From: an uncultured bacterium
Lineage (GTDB): Bacteria; Margulisbacteria; WOR-1; CAVSGV01
DNA: 32,000 bases
Assembly (NCBI GenBank): GCA_963699255.1
Contig: OY969425.1
Coordinates: forward strand, 300,001 to 332,000
Reading direction: 5' to 3'
Shown here: positions 8,779 through 14,236 of the stretch, piece by piece
Position numbering within the stretch: the stretch's first letter is position 1
Layout of the letters: every line of letters begins with the position of its first letter
Program-made: the position numbers and the translations under genes
Notes under the pieces: model-generated
Databases searched by the model: none
What the model was told of the DNA's origin: nothing
Seen by the model: the letters and a program-made list of their open reading frames with translations, nothing else

Positions 8779-9036
8779 GTGAAAAAGAGTTTTACAGCAT
8801 TATTCATGTTGCTATTGGTCCTAGGCTGTTTCTCGGCAAATGTCGTTTTTGCAGATCAGGTAGCGGTGAGTCAGGAAGCTCAAAAGGTAAAACAGGACAG
8901 AAAGCAGTTAAAACAGGATAAGAAAGCCCTCAAAGCAGCCAAAAAGGCGGCCAGAAAGGCAAAACGTGCGGCAAGGAAGCAGCAAAAGCAGGGAACAAGC
9001 GAGGCCACACCGGCTCCGGTCCAAACAAATCAGTGA
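8779..9036 (+). CDS. small exported (possibly lipo-) protein with a lysine/arginine-rich helical tail
   Basis: GTG 8779 sits 8 nt after GAGGAGG (8764-8770). Signal peptide KKSFTALFMLLLVLGCFSANVVFA contains a VLGC lipobox-like site. The mature part is K/R/Q/A-rich (KQLKQDKKALKAAKKAARKAKRAARKQQKQ). A terminator follows. Confidence 0.6.
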   Translation: MKKSFTALFMLLLVLGCFSANVVFADQVAVSQEAQKVKQDRKQLKQDKKALKAAKKAARKAKRAARKQQKQGTSEATPAPVQTNQ

Positions 9037-9055
9037 TCACTGAAACATAAATATA

Positions 9056-9090
9056 AAGCCGAGGGGACTTAAACCCTTCGGCTTTTGTTT
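9056..9090 (+). terminator. rho-independent terminator
   Basis: AAGCCGAGGGG-ACTTAAA-CCCTTCGGCTT stem-loop with one bulged T, followed by TTTGTTT. It lies directly after the stop at 9036. Confidence 0.6.
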
Positions 9091-9127
9091 GTAAAACCCC
9101 AATAGGAACGGATGGTGGGTTAGTCTG

Positions 9128-9137
9128 CGTATCAAGG
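9128..9137. repeat. left copy of the 10-bp direct repeat CGTATCAAGG
   Basis: Read directly from the sequence. Identical to 14545-14554. The flanking bases differ on both sides. Confidence 0.6.
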
Positions 9138-9151
9138 ATCCGAAATAATTT

Positions 9152-9197
9152 AATTTCCAATTCACAATTTACAATTTGACATTTATTATTGGAAATT
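9152..9197. repeat. 10-bp perfect inverted repeat enclosing three tandem heptamers (candidate origin or recombination site)
   Basis: AATTTCCAAT (9152-9161) and ATTGGAAATT (9188-9197) are exact reverse complements. The 26-bp spacer contains ACAATTT (9164-9170), ACAATTT (9171-9177) and GACATTT (9178-9184). Confidence 0.6.
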
Positions 9198-9326
9198 GGT
9201 CATTACCCGAAGGGTTGGCTCCCCCTAGTAGACATGTTCAGGAACCGACTTATTAAGGTTGAGCTTAGCCTTCAATACATTAAATCTATTTATTCTTGTC
9301 TTAGAATTGAACCCGTAATTGTTTAA

Positions 9327-9659
9327 CTAATGTGGTTTTGGCGAACTGAGAAAATCAAACAGAAATTTAAGAGCAACTCCAAGAACTACAAGAAAAATGG
9401 CCCAAAGAGCATCCCCCCATTGTTTGAGTCTAGAAAAGACCGCATTTCTATCAACTTCTTGGATTAGTTTTTTTATTTCATTTTTTATATTTTCATCCTT
9501 TTTTACCATAGAACAAAAGAGATCGCAAAATAATTTATCTAGTTTTTTTGAATCCTTTGACGCTTCTTCCAATGCAAGAGCAATTTGTTCTGGTTTTAAT
9601 CTATTTTCAAGTACCGTTACGCGGTCTTTTATGCTTGGTTTATCAACATTACCTGCCAT
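9327..9659 (-). CDS. hypothetical 110-aa protein: charged helical N-terminal part plus a single C-terminal TM helix
   Basis: The ORF starts 1 nt after the stop of the upstream 160-aa ORF. Its C-terminal segment WGDALWAIFLVVLGVALKFLFDFL is hydrophobic and the rest is K/E-rich. No family recognised. Confidence 0.6.
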   Translation of the reverse strand: MAGNVDKPSIKDRVTVLENRLKPEQIALALEEASKDSKKLDKLFCDLFCSMVKKDENIKNEIKKLIQEVDRNAVFSRLKQWGDALWAIFLVVLGVALKFLFDFLSSPKPH

Positions 9660-9660
9660 A

Positions 9661-10143
9661 TTATTGTCCTTTTAATTTACCTATCGCATTGTCGACTGCT
9701 AGAAAAAAATCATCAATCTTCTTATTTCCCGCACTATATCCTAAACTAAATTCGTCTTCAGGAAATTCAATTGATATTTCGGCTCTTTTTTCTCCGTTTT
9801 CCACATTAAGAGATCTTTTAACGCCCCCAATTATATCTCTTAAATAAGTGGAATCAGATTTAATGTCTTGACCAGTATCAGCAATGGTAACTTTAATCAA
9901 TTTTGCCTTTGTTAGGATATACACAAGAATTCCTTCTGCCCCTTGCGATAAGGTAGCGGGAATAACAAGACATTCTGTCACAGTATCCCCATTAACTATC
10001 TTTGTAATAAATTCAGGGAAGGTGGTTTTATCAAGCCGACTAAGTAGGGTGTCATCATCATAACTATATACTTTATCCAATATGATTTGAATTTTATCTG
10101 CGCCTTCGGCTAATGGTTGAACTTTGCTTACATTGTCGTCCAT
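9661..10143 (-). CDS. hypothetical 160-aa soluble protein (beta-rich core plus C-terminal helix, possibly PH-like)
   Basis: Clean ORF and first gene of a two-gene minus-strand operon. It has alternating beta-like segments (TECLVIPATL, GILVYILTKAKLIKVTIA, RAEISIEFPEDEFSLGY) and a terminal helix KKIDDFFLAVDNAIGKLK. The fold assignment is only an inference. Confidence 0.6.
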   Translation of the reverse strand: MDDNVSKVQPLAEGADKIQIILDKVYSYDDDTLLSRLDKTTFPEFITKIVNGDTVTECLVIPATLSQGAEGILVYILTKAKLIKVTIADTGQDIKSDSTYLRDIIGGVKRSLNVENGEKRAEISIEFPEDEFSLGYSAGNKKIDDFFLAVDNAIGKLKGQ

Positions 10144-10152
10144 ATATGTTTT

Positions 10153-10182
10153 ATATTACCTTTTTATAATATTGATGTCAAT
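10153..10182 (-). promoter_or_regulatory. candidate promoter with overlapping palindrome for the 10143-9327 operon
   Basis: On the minus strand: TTGACA (10181-10176), a 17-nt spacer, then TAATAT (10158-10153). The ATG at 10143 lies only 9 nt downstream of the -10. The palindrome ATTGA-TG-TCAAT (10171-10182) overlaps the -35. Confidence 0.45.
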
Positions 10183-10369
10183 ACTGCCTAGCCCTCATTT
10201 GTTGTGCCACTTAGACTTATTCTGTCCCTAATATACCTAAAATTATGTAGATCAGCGTTACCGCAATGGATAGCTCCATTTATACTCATTATAATGAATC
10301 GGACTAAACGGTATTTCAAGAATGCTTTGATCAATGATATAATAATAATTGATTTGAAGAAGTAATGAT

Positions 10370-11230
10370 ATGACAACACAAAAAAACCAGCAGTTGCGCG
10401 ATAAACTCGACAGCGTTGACAGCAGGGCAAACCAACCACGGCCAACTCAAGGACAAGCTAAGATGCTTCGCTATATAGAAGACCTTATCCGAAATAAACA
10501 ATTTAAGCGACTGATTAAAAGGTTAAGAAACCTGAGCAAACTTCGCACTATGCCTAAAGGTAACTATTATGACTGGACTCTTGAAGAACAAAAAAAACAT
10601 GATGGGATAAACAATGAGCTTCATTCAATCGCTCAAGGATATGAGGCTTTGCGTAAAAGATGCAAAAAGGTCTTGAGGAAAAAAGATTCTGTTGTGAGAG
10701 AAAAAATTGCGTCTGATTACGGGTTAGATAATGATTTAATAAACCACGCCTTGGCCTTACTTGGAAAGAATGAGGAAACCATAAAATGGTCAAAAAAGGA
10801 AATTGATCCTGATATGTGCAAATTGATTGATTTGTATGAAGAAGAAATGAGCCCTCTCAATAAAGGGGAAGAGATTATATATCTAAACCTTGTCCGACAG
10901 CTCCTAATTACAGCATATCCCGTTGCTATCGCCATTCACCCAAGAGCCTCAAAAAGAGATGTTTTAGATTATATTGAGAAGCGATGGAAATGGATTGACG
11001 CAAAACAATGGATGTTTAACCAAAAAGGTGCACTTAAAATCAAGAAAAGAAAGCATAGCCAAGAAATGATCGATTTTATATGGGCAAATCGTTCTTTGCC
11101 AGCAAAGCAAATTGAGAAAAAGCTCAATAAAAAGTTTCCAAATAATGAGCTTGTCTACTACGAAATAAGCAAGATAATCCAAATTGAAAAGCAAAGACGC
11201 TTCAAAGACTTAACTGCTACCGAAAAATAA
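10370..11230 (+). CDS. hypothetical 286-aa protein (basic, possible C-terminal helix-turn-helix)
   Basis: Long uninterrupted ORF in an AT-rich region where random ORFs are short. The C-terminal segment SQEMIDFIWANRSLPAKQIEKKLNKKFPNNELVYYEISKII looks HTH-like. No family recognised. Confidence 0.65.
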   Translation: MTTQKNQQLRDKLDSVDSRANQPRPTQGQAKMLRYIEDLIRNKQFKRLIKRLRNLSKLRTMPKGNYYDWTLEEQKKHDGINNELHSIAQGYEALRKRCKKVLRKKDSVVREKIASDYGLDNDLINHALALLGKNEETIKWSKKEIDPDMCKLIDLYEEEMSPLNKGEEIIYLNLVRQLLITAYPVAIAIHPRASKRDVLDYIEKRWKWIDAKQWMFNQKGALKIKKRKHSQEMIDFIWANRSLPAKQIEKKLNKKFPNNELVYYEISKIIQIEKQRRFKDLTATEK

Positions 11231-11306
11231 CGTGGGTCGGTAACTTCTTATCTAATTATTCTGCAAGCAGGTAACCTTATGGCATAACCATTAAAGGTTG
11301 CTTGTT

Positions 11307-11576
11307 ATGCAAGACACAAATAAAGATCAACAAAACAAGAATCTTCAAATAAAGGATTGCTCCTCCGAAGCCCGACGGAATCTTGTCGGCTTCTTTGGGT
11401 TGCCTATTACAGACGATAAACAAACGACACATGACATGGACATCAGTAATTTATCTTTTAGTGATGAAGAGATTAAAAGGATTGCTGATGTCCTCGCTAT
11501 TTTAATTAAAGTCGACCAAAGAATAAAGGGAACAAAAAGGGAGGTGAACATAAATGAAGGAAATATTAAAGCTTGA
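11307..11576 (+). CDS. hypothetical 89-aa protein
   Basis: ATG 11307 lies about 10 nt after AAAGG. The ORF track begins at TTG 11298. Same strand and tightly packed with downstream genes. No motif recognised. Confidence 0.4.
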   Translation: MQDTNKDQQNKNLQIKDCSSEARRNLVGFFGLPITDDKQTTHDMDISNLSFSDEEIKRIADVLAILIKVDQRIKGTKREVNINEGNIKA

Positions 11577-11688
11577 AAAAGCATTGCGTGAAATTTTTGC
11601 AAAGAATTATAAAGAAGAGTTATCTAGACGGGTTAAGAAAGGACTTGAAGAAGCAAAAAAGCGAAAAAATGAAACCAATAATAAGTGA
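11554..11688 (+). CDS. 44-aa basic helical ORF (below the ORF-track cutoff)
   Basis: ATG 11554 is preceded by a strong RBS GGGAGGTG (11539-11546, 7-nt spacing). Translation by hand: MKEILKLEKALREIFAKNYKEELSRRVKKGLEEAKKRKNETNNK, stop TGA 11686-11688. It overlaps both neighbours. Residues IFAKNYKEELSRRVKKGLEEAKKRK resemble the alpha-E helix of serine recombinases (FAEFERELISERTKAGLAAAKARGK pattern). Confidence 0.4.
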   Translation: MKEILKLEKALREIFAKNYKEELSRRVKKGLEEAKKRKNETNNK

Positions 11689-11965
11689 GATACAAATAAC
11701 GCCGATCAAGGCAAAAGACGGGCTGATTGCTATTGCCAGCTTTGTCTATAACGAGGATTTTTATATGGGGTCAATCGGGATATACACAAGGCCGCAGGCC
11801 GGATACCGATTGACCTACCCCACCCGTAAGACCGCTAACGGTAGTTTCAATCTTTTCCATCCGATTAACAAAACCATTGCGGATGAAATTGAGAAAGCAG
11901 TAATCAGCAAATTTGAAGAGGTAATGAATCTGTATGATAGACACAATAGTATTAACACTGAGTAA
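11669..11965 (+). CDS. SpoVG-fold nucleic-acid-binding protein homologue
   Basis: MKPIISEIQITPIKAKDGLIAIASFVYNEDFYMGSIGIYTRPQAGYRLTYPTRKTANGSFNLFHPINKTIADEIEKAVISKF aligns by eye with B. subtilis SpoVG ([34 protein letters not shown]...[34 protein letters not shown]). ATG 11669 fits the family N-terminus. The track ORF starts earlier at TTG 11573. Confidence 0.75.
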   Translation: MKPIISEIQITPIKAKDGLIAIASFVYNEDFYMGSIGIYTRPQAGYRLTYPTRKTANGSFNLFHPINKTIADEIEKAVISKFEEVMNLYDRHNSINTE

Positions 11966-13103
11966 AGATATGTTTTATATAACCGAACCGGATAAATTTA
12001 CGCCATCGGCTCGCTGGCTTGATGCTAACACAAGCCTATCGGGAAGCCGTGCCTATATCACTTCCAAGCAAAACCCGATAAAAACCGAATTGCTTGACGG
12101 CCTTTATAAGCCCCGCCTTACTTTAACCAACCGTTTTAACCATACTGGAAGCTTTGAAGCTTCATTAAAAATCGAGCTATCCTTACCCAAACTTCTATAT
12201 GGAAATAACTTTGATGAATTGAAAGATTCCGATTTTGAATCGGTCTCAAACAAATTACAGGAACGGCTACAAGAAATGGGCGTTCATGTTTTTAAGCATT
12301 TACTTATCAAAGCCCTTGTTTCAGCGGTGCATTATTCAAAAAACATACCGCTTACCGACGGGACAACACCTTATCACTTCATAAAGAAAATTCGAGAAGC
12401 CAATATCACTCAAGCCCTCGATGCTAACCAAACCGATTTCCGCAATGATGGCCATAGTTTTAAGTGGCATTGCAATTCTTATGAAGTCGCATTTTATGAC
12501 AAGATCAAAGACCTTGAATTTTCAAAGAAAAGCACAAAACGGGCAATAGAAAAAGATAATATTATGCAACTGGGGCTTTTTGATGCTTTGCAAAAAAGAA
12601 AACCCTTTGAGGTCTTGAGGATGGAAGTAAGGCTAAATAAACGGCAAAAAATAAGCCAGGTTTTCAAAAGGCTTGGGATTGACAGCGAGGTAACCTTTCA
12701 AAGTGTTTTTGATTCCAAAAAATCTCAATTAGTCTTATCGTATTATCTTGTCGAAGTCGAGAAGCAAAGGTCAGCCCTATTGGATCGGACATATAACGAT
12801 CCCCAAACATTATTAGCTGATATTGTCATAAGCAATCCAAAACTGAAAGCAAGACAGGCATTACAGGTGTTTGGATTAAAGCAGGCGTTTGATAAAATCG
12901 GGATGCGGGAGCTAAGGAAGATACTTAACAGATTAAGCGATCGATCTTGGTATCGTTTAGTTAATACTATCAAGCAAGTGAAGCTTGCGAAAAAGAATGA
13001 CACTTTCGGGGTTATCCGCAAACATCTATTATCTTTTGAACCCCTAAAGTTAGCTAATTTTCAAAATGCCATCGAAGATAGAAAGGGCTTGAACAGCGTA
13101 TGA
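11934..13103 (+). CDS. rolling-circle replication initiator-like protein (Rep_trans / phage gene II-CRI superfamily)
   Basis: 389 aa. The N-terminus MIDTIVLTLSKDMF resembles f1 gpII MIDMLVLRLPF. The central pair of motifs SYEVAFYDKIKDLE ... FEVLRMEVRLNKRQKI matches the pT181 RepC pattern RIYNKKQE ... WRVEIELKR and the gpII pattern LVRFEARIKTRYLK. RBS GAGGT lies 9 nt upstream. The gene overlaps the SpoVG-like gene by 32 nt. Confidence 0.6.
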   Translation: MIDTIVLTLSKDMFYITEPDKFTPSARWLDANTSLSGSRAYITSKQNPIKTELLDGLYKPRLTLTNRFNHTGSFEASLKIELSLPKLLYGNNFDELKDSDFESVSNKLQERLQEMGVHVFKHLLIKALVSAVHYSKNIPLTDGTTPYHFIKKIREANITQALDANQTDFRNDGHSFKWHCNSYEVAFYDKIKDLEFSKKSTKRAIEKDNIMQLGLFDALQKRKPFEVLRMEVRLNKRQKISQVFKRLGIDSEVTFQSVFDSKKSQLVLSYYLVEVEKQRSALLDRTYNDPQTLLADIVISNPKLKARQALQVFGLKQAFDKIGMRELRKILNRLSDRSWYRLVNTIKQVKLAKKNDTFGVIRKHLLSFEPLKLANFQNAIEDRKGLNSV

Positions 13104-13510
13104 ACAGCGAGAAAAGGCATAATGCCACAGACACAGGGCAAACGAGGCTCACAGGGGCTATTATCACGCATTATAGGCCCTTATGGCGGATTACTGATGA
13201 TGCCTATGACAGGTATTATCAATCCTTCAGGGATAAGATAGCCGAAATTGATGCGAGGTTAGCACTACTTCAAGATGCCGAAGATAATTACTATATCACT
13301 GTAAAATACTTGCTAGATGTGGCTAAACGGGCAAACGATCTATTTGTCCGTTCGGAAGTTGAGGAAAAACGACAGATCATCAAGCTTATACTTCCGAACC
13401 TTAGGATGGATGGCAATACTTTGCGATATGAAGCACAAAAACCGTTTGATTTTCTACTCGCTTATGCGGATAGTAAAGGAAAGCTCCCCCGAGAGGACTC
13501 GAACCTCTAA
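13100..13510 (+). pseudogene. large serine recombinase, C-terminal fragment only (coiled-coil / C-terminal region); no catalytic domain
   Basis: ITDDAYDRYYQSFRDKIAEIDARLALLQDAEDNYYITVKYLLDVAKRANDLFVRSEVEEKRQIIKLILPNLRMDGNTLRYEAQKPFDFLL matches the recalled C-terminal consensus of large serine recombinases (..AN..Y...G..LLELA..A..LF......EKRRLLNFVLSN......L....R.PFDLL). The ATG overlaps the Rep stop (ATGA at 13100). The last 27 nt run into the tRNA 3' end. Confidence 0.55.
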
Positions 13511-13793
13511 CCAATCGGTTACAAGAACCTCAAAATTACTTTTGAGCTTGGACTATCTCATCACCCTTATTAACGGTCTAAAGGGGTCGGGCGCTGATGA
13601 GGTTTATTGGTTGGGATCCTCACCCTCTAGTCTCTGCACGTTACCGCCTACTTTAAACCCTTCGGCGATCTTCGCTCAGGATTATCCTTAGACAACCTAA
13701 GGACTTCCCTGAATTCACCCGATTTTTCAACCCCGGTTACCCGGGGAAGCTGCCACTTGACAGCCGATTGCTCTACCATTGAGCTACAGGGGA
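13484..13793 (-). tRNA. tRNA-Asn (anticodon GUU) interrupted by a 238-nt group I intron; exons 13793-13760 and 13521-13484
   Basis: The spliced sequence is UCCCCUG UA GCUC AAUGGUA GAGC A AUCGG CUGU|UAA CCGAU UGGUU AGAGG UUCGAGU CCUCU CGGGGGA G (72 nt). It forms a full cloverleaf with a 7-bp acceptor stem (one G.U), U1-A72, discriminator G73 and anticodon loop CUGUUAA, as in E. coli tRNA-Asn. CCA is not encoded. Confidence 0.85.
13522..13759 (-). ncRNA. group I (self-splicing type) intron in the tRNA anticodon loop
   Basis: - P1: the 5' exon ends in U, and exon GCUGU pairs with intron GCAGC (13753-13749), giving a U.G pair at the splice site.
- P2: CCCCGG-GUAA-CCGGGG (13746-13731).
- P-like element GAAUUCAGGGAAG and Q-like element AAUCCUGAGC, forming P4 CAGGG/UCCUG.
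- P5: UCCUUAG-GUUGU-CUAAGGA.
- R-like element GUGCAGAGACUAGA (13639-13626) and S-like element GAGAUAGUCC (13559-13550), forming P7 GACUA/UAGUC.
- P9: CUCAAAA-GUAA-UUUUGAG (13546-13529).
- The last intron nucleotide is G (13522). Confidence 0.85.
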
Positions 13794-13811
13794 GCGCCAA
13801 TGGATATGGTC

Positions 13812-13839
13812 ATTCTATCAAGAAATGATTATTTGTCTA
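13812..13839 (-). promoter_or_regulatory. candidate promoter for the tRNA gene
   Basis: On the minus strand: TAGACA (13839-13834), a 16-nt spacer, then TAGAAT (13817-13812). This lies 18 nt upstream of tRNA position 1. Confidence 0.3.
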
Positions 13840-14142
13840 CTTTGAGATAAAGCCCGCATGTAATTCACGGTGACAGTTTGCGCACAACAATTTACACTTA
13901 TTAAGTTCATTTTTTACTTTTTCCTAACTACGAGTGTAACCTTTTGCTGATATCCCGAAATCCTTCTTCGTGTCATCAAGATGATGGAATTCCAATGCAT
14001 CAGGGCATTTAGAATATCCGCAGTTCTCGCAAAAGCCACCTTTTAACTCAATTGCTTTTACCCGCAAATTCCTTCTTTTCTTTTTGACCGCTTCTATCAG
14101 ATACTTGCGTCTGTCCTTATATGTTCTTGTATCTTTATTCAT
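13837..14142 (-). pseudogene. small HNH endonuclease with an in-frame TAG (13924-13926) at a conserved Trp position
   Basis: The track ORF ends ...FGISAKGYTRS*. Reading through the TAG in the same frame gives EKVKNELNKCKLLCANCHRELHAGFISK*. This restores the CxxC ... HH ... CxxCH architecture of about-100-aa HNH proteins, whose consensus as I recall it has RSWE at this point. TGG to TAG is a single transition. Confidence 0.8.
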
Positions 14143-14236
14143 ATAATGAAGTATATCAAATTAGCTCAAAGCTTTATAGGGTTCAGATAAACAGGTTGCG
14201 AAACTTGTCCAGCCGGGGAGGAATTTTTTTGTTTCT

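Follow-up and report, generated by a model that had tools for sequence, protein, structure and literature searches.

A probably functional group I intron of the Asn.4Ug class in a bacterial tRNA-Asn(GUU) gene, beside an HNH endonuclease gene with an in-frame stop codon

Introduction

The classic group I introns of bacterial tRNA genes, those of tRNA-Leu(UAA) and tRNA-fMet in cyanobacteria, tRNA-Ile(CAU) in Azoarcus and tRNA-Arg(CCU) in Agrobacterium, belong to subgroup IC3. Here we describe an intron in a tRNA-Asn(GUU) gene of an uncultured bacterium (GTDB lineage Bacteria; Margulisbacteria; WOR-1; CAVSGV01), found within 32,000 nucleotides (nt) of assembly GCA_963699255.1 (contig OY969425.1, positions 300,001 to 332,000), hereafter the window, together with a gene for an HNH endonuclease just upstream of the tRNA. 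Like the classic introns it is compact (about 200-250 nt), lies in the anticodon loop, has a U.G pair at its 5' splice site and ends in G, whereas both its host tRNA and its position within the loop are different. The anticodon stem presumably aligns the exons in both, a role that Zaug et al. 1993 demonstrated in the intron of Anabaena (as cited in PMC3984707).

The range of known hosts has since widened. According to a 2020 bioRxiv preprint by Williams, a scan of about 80,000 genomes raised the number of intron-interrupted tRNA types in bacteria from 4 to 21, with a total of 5292 interrupted tRNA genes of all types; a type named Asn.4Ug is among them and is represented in the seed alignment by Pam37.Asn.4Ug (doi 10.1101/2020.01.27.920355). 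The Azoarcus lineage is represented by Aol6.Ile2.5Ug, which has nothing between P7 and P3', whereas the window intron carries an extra element there.

Among endonucleases associated with such introns, I-Ssp6803I belongs to the PD-(D/E)XK family, whereas the enzyme encoded in the window is of the HNH type. The gene for I-Ssp6803I lies inside the tRNA-fMet intron of Synechocystis (Bonocora & Shub 2001, as cited in PMC3984707), whereas the window has a broken gene placed outside its intron. In arrangement the window resembles F-CphI and the psbA intron of cyanophage ("collaborative homing") and the trans homing of T4 mobE/I-TevIII (PMC2790892), where a free-standing endonuclease gene neighbours a group I intron that contains no open reading frame (ORF). 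Common to these cases and the window are related introns that carry the gene internally and frequent decay of the endonuclease gene. The phage examples concern protein-coding genes, whereas the window presents a bacterial chromosomal tRNA gene and an HNH enzyme whose cleavage role is predicted.

Results and Discussion

An intron in the anticodon loop of tRNA-Asn(GUU)

Judged by comparison with its relatives, the locus is very probably a functional-looking tRNA-Asn(GUU) gene that carries an Asn.4Ug intron, accompanied by a decaying free-standing homing-endonuclease gene. The tRNA gene, its intron and the HNH gene all lie on the minus strand. Exon 1 (13760..13793) is 34 nt long, covers tRNA positions 1-35 and ends in ...GGCUGU; exon 2 (13484..13521) is 38 nt long, starts with UAACCG and covers positions 36-73, with the discriminator G73 at 13484 and no encoded CCA. 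Across the locus the minus strand reads ...GCAAUCGGCUGU / CAAGUGGCAGCUU ... GGUUCUUG / UAACCGAUUGG..., the slashes marking the passage from exon to intron and from intron to exon. When 13793-13760 and 13521-13484 were joined by hand, ARAGORN called a tRNA-Asn(GTT) of 73 nt that folds into a regular cloverleaf and has U1-A72 and G73. The spliced tRNA has a 7-nt anticodon loop, CUGUUAA, with anticodon GUU; the anticodon and G73 are asparagine identity elements. The intervening 238 nt (13522..13759), which contain no ORF and end in omegaG at 13522, are recognized by the Rfam group I model RF00028 (Intron_gpI) with 84.7 bits, where the gathering score is 50 (E=2e-20; match at 13529-13769, covering model positions 1-253, the full model), and this is the sole Rfam hit in the window. 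An original prediction, drawn from the letters of the window, had proposed the two exon blocks of a canonical tRNA-Asn(GUU) with their coordinates, an insertion between anticodon positions 35 and 36, a 238-nt group I intron with an exon-terminal U paired as U.G to its guide and a 3'-terminal G, and pairings comprising P1, GUAA-capped P2 and P9, P3, P4, P7 and an extra hairpin between P7 and P3'. All of these were borne out.

The intron belongs to a large set of relatives. One genome per bacterial species was scanned with a core pattern P7...P3'...P7' and splice sites were re-mapped at the matching loci, which number at least 120. Among the matches listed, 59 of 120 are tRNA-Asn(GUU) genes split exactly at CUGU/UAA with a 3'-terminal G, in Acidobacteriota, Nitrospirota, Cyanobacteriota, Elusimicrobia, Patescibacteria, Bacteroidota, deltaproteobacterial groups and others; in all 60 mapped Asn introns among these matches, the window included, G precedes UAA. 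The Asn.4Ug class is thus abundant and phylogenetically broad. In its ribozyme core the window intron shares 75-79% identity with ORF-less and with ORF-containing introns alike.

A MAFFT alignment of the window intron with 26 ORF-less orthologous introns (n=27), onto which the pairings of the window were projected, supports the predicted fold. Standard pairs occupy 91.2% of the cells, compared with 76.6 +/- 0.6% in shuffles, and 39 of 62 pairs are changed on both sides (26.8 in shuffles); none of 500 shuffles attained the observed values, and sliding the 3' partners by 1-3 columns lowered pairing to 32-48%. Covariation is found in P2, P3, P6, P6a, P9 and P9.0, whereas P1, including U-1.G, and P7 are invariant. 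Folding the window intron alone by minimum free energy recovered P2, P3, P4, P5, P6/P6a, the extra hairpin, P8 and P9 (z = -2.5). With the significant RF00028 match and the support for P3-P8, we regard the intron as genuine and, from its conservation, as probably functional.

In the predicted structure, the last six nucleotides of exon 1, GGCUGU (13765-13760, U-1 at 13760), pair as P1 with the internal guide GCAGCU (13753-13748) across the 6-nt loop CAAGUG (13759-13754), so that the intron portion of P1 spans 13748..13759; the U-1.G wobble at the 5' splice site is kept in 27/27 aligned introns. P2 (13731..13746) is a hairpin CCCCGG-GUAA-CCGGGG with compensatory changes in 6/6 pairs and 98% of cells paired. 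P3 joins UCGGGUG (13722-13716) to CGCCCGA (13593-13587), is 100% paired with three covarying pairs and, over 13587..13722, encloses P4 (13712-13708 / 13680-13676, 98.5% paired), P5 (13704-13684) and P6/P6a (13675-13638, 99-100% paired, seven covarying pairs between them). P3 also encloses the extra hairpin and the 5' strand of P7, GAGACUA (13634-13628, read as G, bulged A and GACUA), which pairs with UAGUCC (13555-13550), and 6/6 P7 pairs are invariant in 27/27 sequences. P8 (13585-13564), followed by J8/7 within 13550..13585, was poorly aligned by MAFFT (61% paired); this segment and the 3' strand of P7 are aligned to the Rfam model. In the last segment of the intron (13522..13549, ending in omegaG), AAG (13549-13547) pairs with CUU (13525-13523) as P9.0, in which 3/3 pairs covary (AU/GC, CG/AU/GC), and P9 (13546-13529) is a hairpin CUCAAAA-GUAA-UUUUGAG with six covarying pairs and 96% pairing.

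The extra hairpin between P7 and P3', GAGG...CCUC (13599..13627, 29 nt), shows covariation in 4/4 pairs with 73% of cells paired. Its interior, UGAGGA ... CCAAUAA, is conserved across phyla while the stem covaries (columns 214-258 of our alignment A1), and it could be a docking site for a GNRA loop (L2 or L9); in other orthologues a pair of plain hairpins takes its place. P7.1 and P7.2 mark subgroup IA. Both are listed among the features that define group I classes (PMC3984707), and "P7.1 region", the label that we use for the extra hairpin, is a term for tmRNA introns in PMC11915505. Our search of the literature for a subgroup formally assigned to bacterial tRNA or tmRNA introns with a P7.1 returned nothing usable, and we assign the window intron to neither IC3 nor IA.

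Class membership and kinship

The window intron is one more member of the already catalogued Asn.4Ug class: in the anticodon loop of tRNA-Asn it follows nucleotide 4, position -1 being U and omega being G (CUGU/...G/UAA). Pam37.Asn.4Ug has the same host tRNA, insertion point (CUGU/UAA), U-1 and omegaG, and shares with the window the core strings UCGGGUGAAUUCA.GGAA, GCAGAGACUA, AGCGCCCGA and GAUGAGAUAGUCC, as well as an extra hairpin containing ..CCAAUAA.. between P7 and P3'. The window copy differs from the seed in its 6-nt P1 loop, its lack of extra P2.1-like hairpins and its length of 238 nt; two cyanobacterial loci (L024 and L083, introns of about 273 nt) closely resemble the seed. The extra element between P7 and P3' also occurs in the seeds Dba165.Lys.2Ug and Mba55.Phe.2Ug. 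In the literature searched we found no experimental splicing test of the Asn.4Ug class, which is a predicted class.

Matches to the window's core pattern also occur in at least 120 viral contigs (L213-L332), mostly outside tRNA genes (7 of 125 inside, among the matches listed). Eight such matches that we inspected are flanked by long protein-coding ORFs, in at least one case with a GIY-YIG-like motif. This pattern suggests kinship with phage-type introns, that is, a ribozyme lineage that may be common to phage genomes and bacterial tRNA genes; BLAST of the locus against annotated phages gave no match.

Some metagenome contigs carry very short tRNA-Asn introns, of 176 nt (L142), 185 nt (L197) and 163 nt (L198). 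The 176-nt and 185-nt introns score 77 and 70 bits with RF00028, and the 163-nt intron falls below threshold. All three are shorter than the Azoarcus intron of about 205 nt that is usually quoted as minimal.

The HNH gene and its homologues

On the upstream side of exon 1, beyond a spacer of 43 nt, lies a free-standing HNH endonuclease gene of about 101 codons (13837..14142, final stop 13839-13837). Its first part, a 72-codon ORF (14142-13924), matches HNH families of PHROGs (phrog_2255, E=3.7e-14, and another at E=1.6e-10) and contains the HNH (beta-beta-alpha-metal) motif as CENCGY...EFHHL...CANCHRELH (CxxC...HH...CANCH). The ORF ends at an in-frame TAG (13926-13924) in place of a Trp codon (TGG to TAG), where nearly all closer homologues read TRSW (TRSWEKVK); after it the frame continues as EKVKNELNKCKLLCANCHRELHAGFISK to the final stop. 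Of 22 long ORFs in the window 9 end in TAG, more than in any other stop codon, and we therefore read it as a true stop here. By comparison with its homologues, then, the gene is a single-nonsense pseudogene whose reading frame is not intact. The original prediction had placed an HNH gene next to the tRNA, which the phrog_2255 match upholds; what does not stand is its view of the gene as a mere neighbour, given that it is a homologue of an intron-encoded endonuclease and is broken by the TAG.

Homologues with 49-69% amino-acid identity lie within the introns of 17 of the 59 Asn loci among the matches listed (L075, L066, L089, L082, L054, L085, L058, L087, L010, L074, L102, L035, L018, L011, L022, L038 and L062), which are 536-578 nt long. 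The intron-encoded frame has about 100-130 codons and opens only a few nt downstream of the 5' splice site. In 15 of these introns the conserved HNH portion ends 15-18 nt (5-6 codons) before the guide GCAGC, the other two lacking an exact match to the motif used; this position before the guide places the HNH gene in the P1 loop. The frame itself reads on through the guide, P2, P3 and P4, giving tails such as ...LQLPQVTVVEKSGEFRE, and the homology of the window HNH to these proteins stops right after ...CANCHRELHAG. Some of the 17 are degenerate, with two stops in L038 and a frameshift in L058, and the introns of L059, L067 and L076 (304-361 nt) hold internally deleted HNH fragments in the P1 loop, for example ...CANCHREVHAGVLQL, which by their sequence look like intermediate stages of ORF loss. 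The literature that we searched yielded no published HNH gene in a tRNA-Asn intron, and the Williams preprint makes no mention of an HNH gene in or beside Asn introns (doi 10.1101/2020.01.27.920355).

A third arrangement is seen in a metagenome-assembled genome of Candidatus Saccharicenans (L115:5385-5680). Here the HNH homologue, intact at 98 codons and equipped with a ribosome-binding site of its own, is found some 150 nt downstream of a tRNA-Asn gene whose intron is ORF-less. The upstream arrangement of the window was sought in metagenomes with a pattern made of the CANCHRE codons, 60-90 nt and GTAGCTCA, with no requirement for an intron. It matched 92 loci. The tRNA downstream is a tRNA-Asn with an intron at CUGU/UAA in 45 (163-350 nt, several ribozyme subtypes) and an uninterrupted tRNA-Asn in 18; the other 29 are tRNA-Thr(GGT), Pro, Gly, Met, Arg or Ile genes or truncated contigs. 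Among the tRNA-Asn cases the intron-bearing share is therefore 45/63, or 71%, and 8 of 12 intron loci tested with the Rfam group I model scored at or above its threshold. More distant members of the HNH family (28-65% identity) lie 60-90 nt upstream of uninterrupted tRNA-Asn and other tRNA genes (L126, L128, L146, L153, L157-L159, L163, L165, L166, L169, L174-L176, L183, L185, L190 and L209, and further L124, L125, L136, L137, L140 and others).

The closest relative of the locus (L138) has an intact HNH gene with 78% amino-acid identity, the same exons and an intron of 234 nt. L138:5871-6602 and window positions 13484-14218 are 76% identical in nucleotide sequence, and their flanks are unrelated. 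The edges of this homology block are sharp, one at the tRNA 3' end (13484) and the other roughly 76 nt before the HNH gene begins, which fits either a mobile cassette of HNH gene and intron-bearing tRNA or rearranged surroundings. In a neighbour-joining tree of 82 HNH sequences (about 100 residues, 60 bootstrap replicates), the basal branches hold the forms found next to uninterrupted tRNAs, and intron-encoded forms are intermingled with free-standing ones. The HNH proteins of the window and L138 are sisters in 59/60 replicates, and their sister group is purely intron-encoded in 44/60. Excision of the HNH gene from the P1 loop by tandem duplication would be expected to leave a "ghost" exon 1 upstream of it; the best candidate, CGGCTG-GACAAGT at about 14215, scored 16 compared with 17 +/- 2.8 for shuffled sequence, no better than chance, and was rejected.

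Proposed splicing and the relationship between intron and endonuclease

By analogy with standard group I chemistry, from which we infer the steps that follow, the anticodon loop CUGUUAA would exist only after the 238-nt ribozyme has been removed from the transcript. In the proposed pathway, GGCUGU (tRNA positions 30-35) pairs with GCAGCU to form P1, placing the U.G pair at the splice site. Attack after U-1 would then come from a free guanosine held by P7, whose pocket is invariant. OmegaG (13522), placed by P9.0, would take the place of this guanosine, and attack of the exon 1 3'-OH after omegaG would join U35 to U36. The anticodon stem (AUCGG/CCGAU) probably aligns the exons during this process, because P10 offers at most two pairs.

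The HNH protein may be a present or former homing endonuclease aimed at tRNA-Asn genes, with the intron protecting the allele that carries it, so that the two would travel together with the gene inside or beside the intron. An enzyme cutting tRNA-Asn genes that lack the intron would leave an allele with the intron untouched, and for this reason intron and HNH gene were probably once mobile together. In the source genome the intron is now effectively fixed, and we propose that, the endonuclease being dead there, it persists only because it splices. A more specific history is conceivable, and we offer it tentatively, as somewhat doubtful: one HNH clade may have moved repeatedly between two sites 80-100 nt apart, one free-standing and directly upstream (in L115, downstream) of tRNA-Asn, the other in the P1 loop, where the coding frame leads directly into the guide. 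Under repeated moves of this kind, HNH genes by uninterrupted tRNA genes, by intron-bearing tRNA genes and inside the intron, and finally deleted or nonsense remnants, would form a natural series, in bacterial chromosomes, in which the window would be a late, decaying stage. Our literature search found no description of such an inside/outside series at tRNA-Asn. If true, the series would show by what steps an ORF-less ribozyme and a homing endonuclease of the free-standing kind are combined into a mobile intron, which later falls apart. The occurrence of the same HNH inside the intron, beside it and in decay, over dozens of loci, offers a tractable comparative system, a lead and not a result, for the question of how homing endonucleases and group I introns become associated.

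Several points weigh against reading the locus as a functional-looking interrupted gene with a decaying homing endonuclease beside it. The evidence for activity consists throughout of conservation and covariation, and our view spans 32 kb, from which it cannot be judged whether this is the sole tRNA-Asn gene of the genome. The HNH Pfam model PF01844 scores 14.6 bits against a cut-off of 21.4; it is the PHROG profiles, together with the motif, that identify the gene as HNH, and its TAG might stem from an error in sequencing or assembly. The HNH tree is based on about 100 residues, and support for nesting among the intron-encoded forms is moderate (73%). Aim at tRNA-Asn is inferred for the enzyme from the comparative pattern and from phage cases (PMC2790892; PMC3984707). 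Homologues are also found upstream of the 18 uninterrupted tRNA-Asn genes and of Thr(GGT), Pro, Gly, Met, Arg and Ile genes, so that by its distribution the family looks tied to tRNA genes in general and not strictly to the intron. These genes, 60-90 nt upstream of their tRNA genes and on basal branches of the HNH tree, are what would be expected of a family that settles upstream of any tRNA gene, the intron being near by accident. We nevertheless think an HNH gene unrelated to the intron unlikely. An intron in 45 of 63 tRNA-Asn cases is far above any plausible background, taking the 5292 interrupted genes in about 80,000 genomes of the Williams preprint as a guide; after L138, the nearest relatives of the window HNH are encoded inside the same intron; and the intact homologue of L115 stands downstream of an ORF-less Asn intron.

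The broken HNH gene next door would also suit a disrupted tRNA pseudogene, a decayed relic that no longer splices while tRNA-Asn is supplied by another gene, and the fact that activity is predicted from sequence, in a genome seen through a 32-kb window, leaves room for it. Such a relic is very improbable in view of the intact exons with their canonical cloverleaf, the U-1.G, P7, J8/7 and omegaG that match columns invariant over 27 species, the complete pairing of all helices in the window copy, and an RF00028 score of 84.7 bits, among the highest of the Asn introns tested (54-77 bits). Least credible is the reading given in the original prediction, which took the Asn(GUU) host gene and the insertion site to be unrecorded and located the copy on a mobile island. 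Reviews to 2014 do name only Leu, fMet, Arg and Ile hosts, and a low-GC stretch does abut the tRNA 3' end. The novelty is refuted by Pam37.Asn.4Ug in the 2020 seed alignment of Williams and by the same split at no fewer than 59 genome loci and at 45 metagenome loci. The island is unsupported, in that no integrase, att repeat or phage-family match was found in the low-GC stretch (Pfam, PHROGs and NCBIfam; repeat search of the window) and low GC is all that speaks for it; with low GC as its one fitting feature, a tRNA-integrated island is possible.

Detection by tRNA finders

In default mode ARAGORN reports zero tRNA genes in the raw 32-kb window. With introns allowed, its splice site shifts with the flanking context and the window tRNA-Asn is typed as Tyr(gta) or Asp(gtc); several orthologous tRNA-Asn genes are likewise mis-typed, as Thr(tgt), Asp(gtc) or His(gtg). 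A genome may seem to be without tRNA-Asn because default finders miss the gene and intron-allowing calls mis-type it, and automated tallies of interrupted tRNA types can be distorted by such mis-typing.

Surroundings of the locus

Between the HNH gene and the tRNA lies the best promoter-like site for the tRNA (13812..13839, minus strand), consisting of TAGACA, 16 nt and TG-n-TAGAAT, with 10/12 consensus matches. The stop codon of the HNH gene falls within the first hexamer, and transcription of the tRNA may therefore not depend on that gene; the site rests on the consensus match only, and the region holds just as many such sites as shuffling predicts.

Downstream, a stretch with a GC content of 36-39% (about 9000-13000) abuts the tRNA 3' end (whole stretch about 9000-13510). 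It contains seven ORFs, and the last of them (13100-13510, plus strand) overlaps the tRNA 3' exon antisense by 27 nt. Searches of Pfam, PHROGs and NCBIfam gave a weak SpoVG-like domain at 11573-11965 as the sole family match, and no integrase, recombinase, mobility or phage families for the ORFs of 9327-13510. The window holds no second copy of the tRNA 3' end, with three mismatches allowed, and no informative direct (att) repeat. A 14-nt exact repeat (9069-9082 and 13653-13666, the latter within the intron) was considered and set aside as chance, its other copy being the stem of a terminator-like hairpin and its BLAST E value 0.12. Elsewhere the window consists of ordinary bacterial chromosome and encodes transporters, a decarboxylase and a rubrerythrin.

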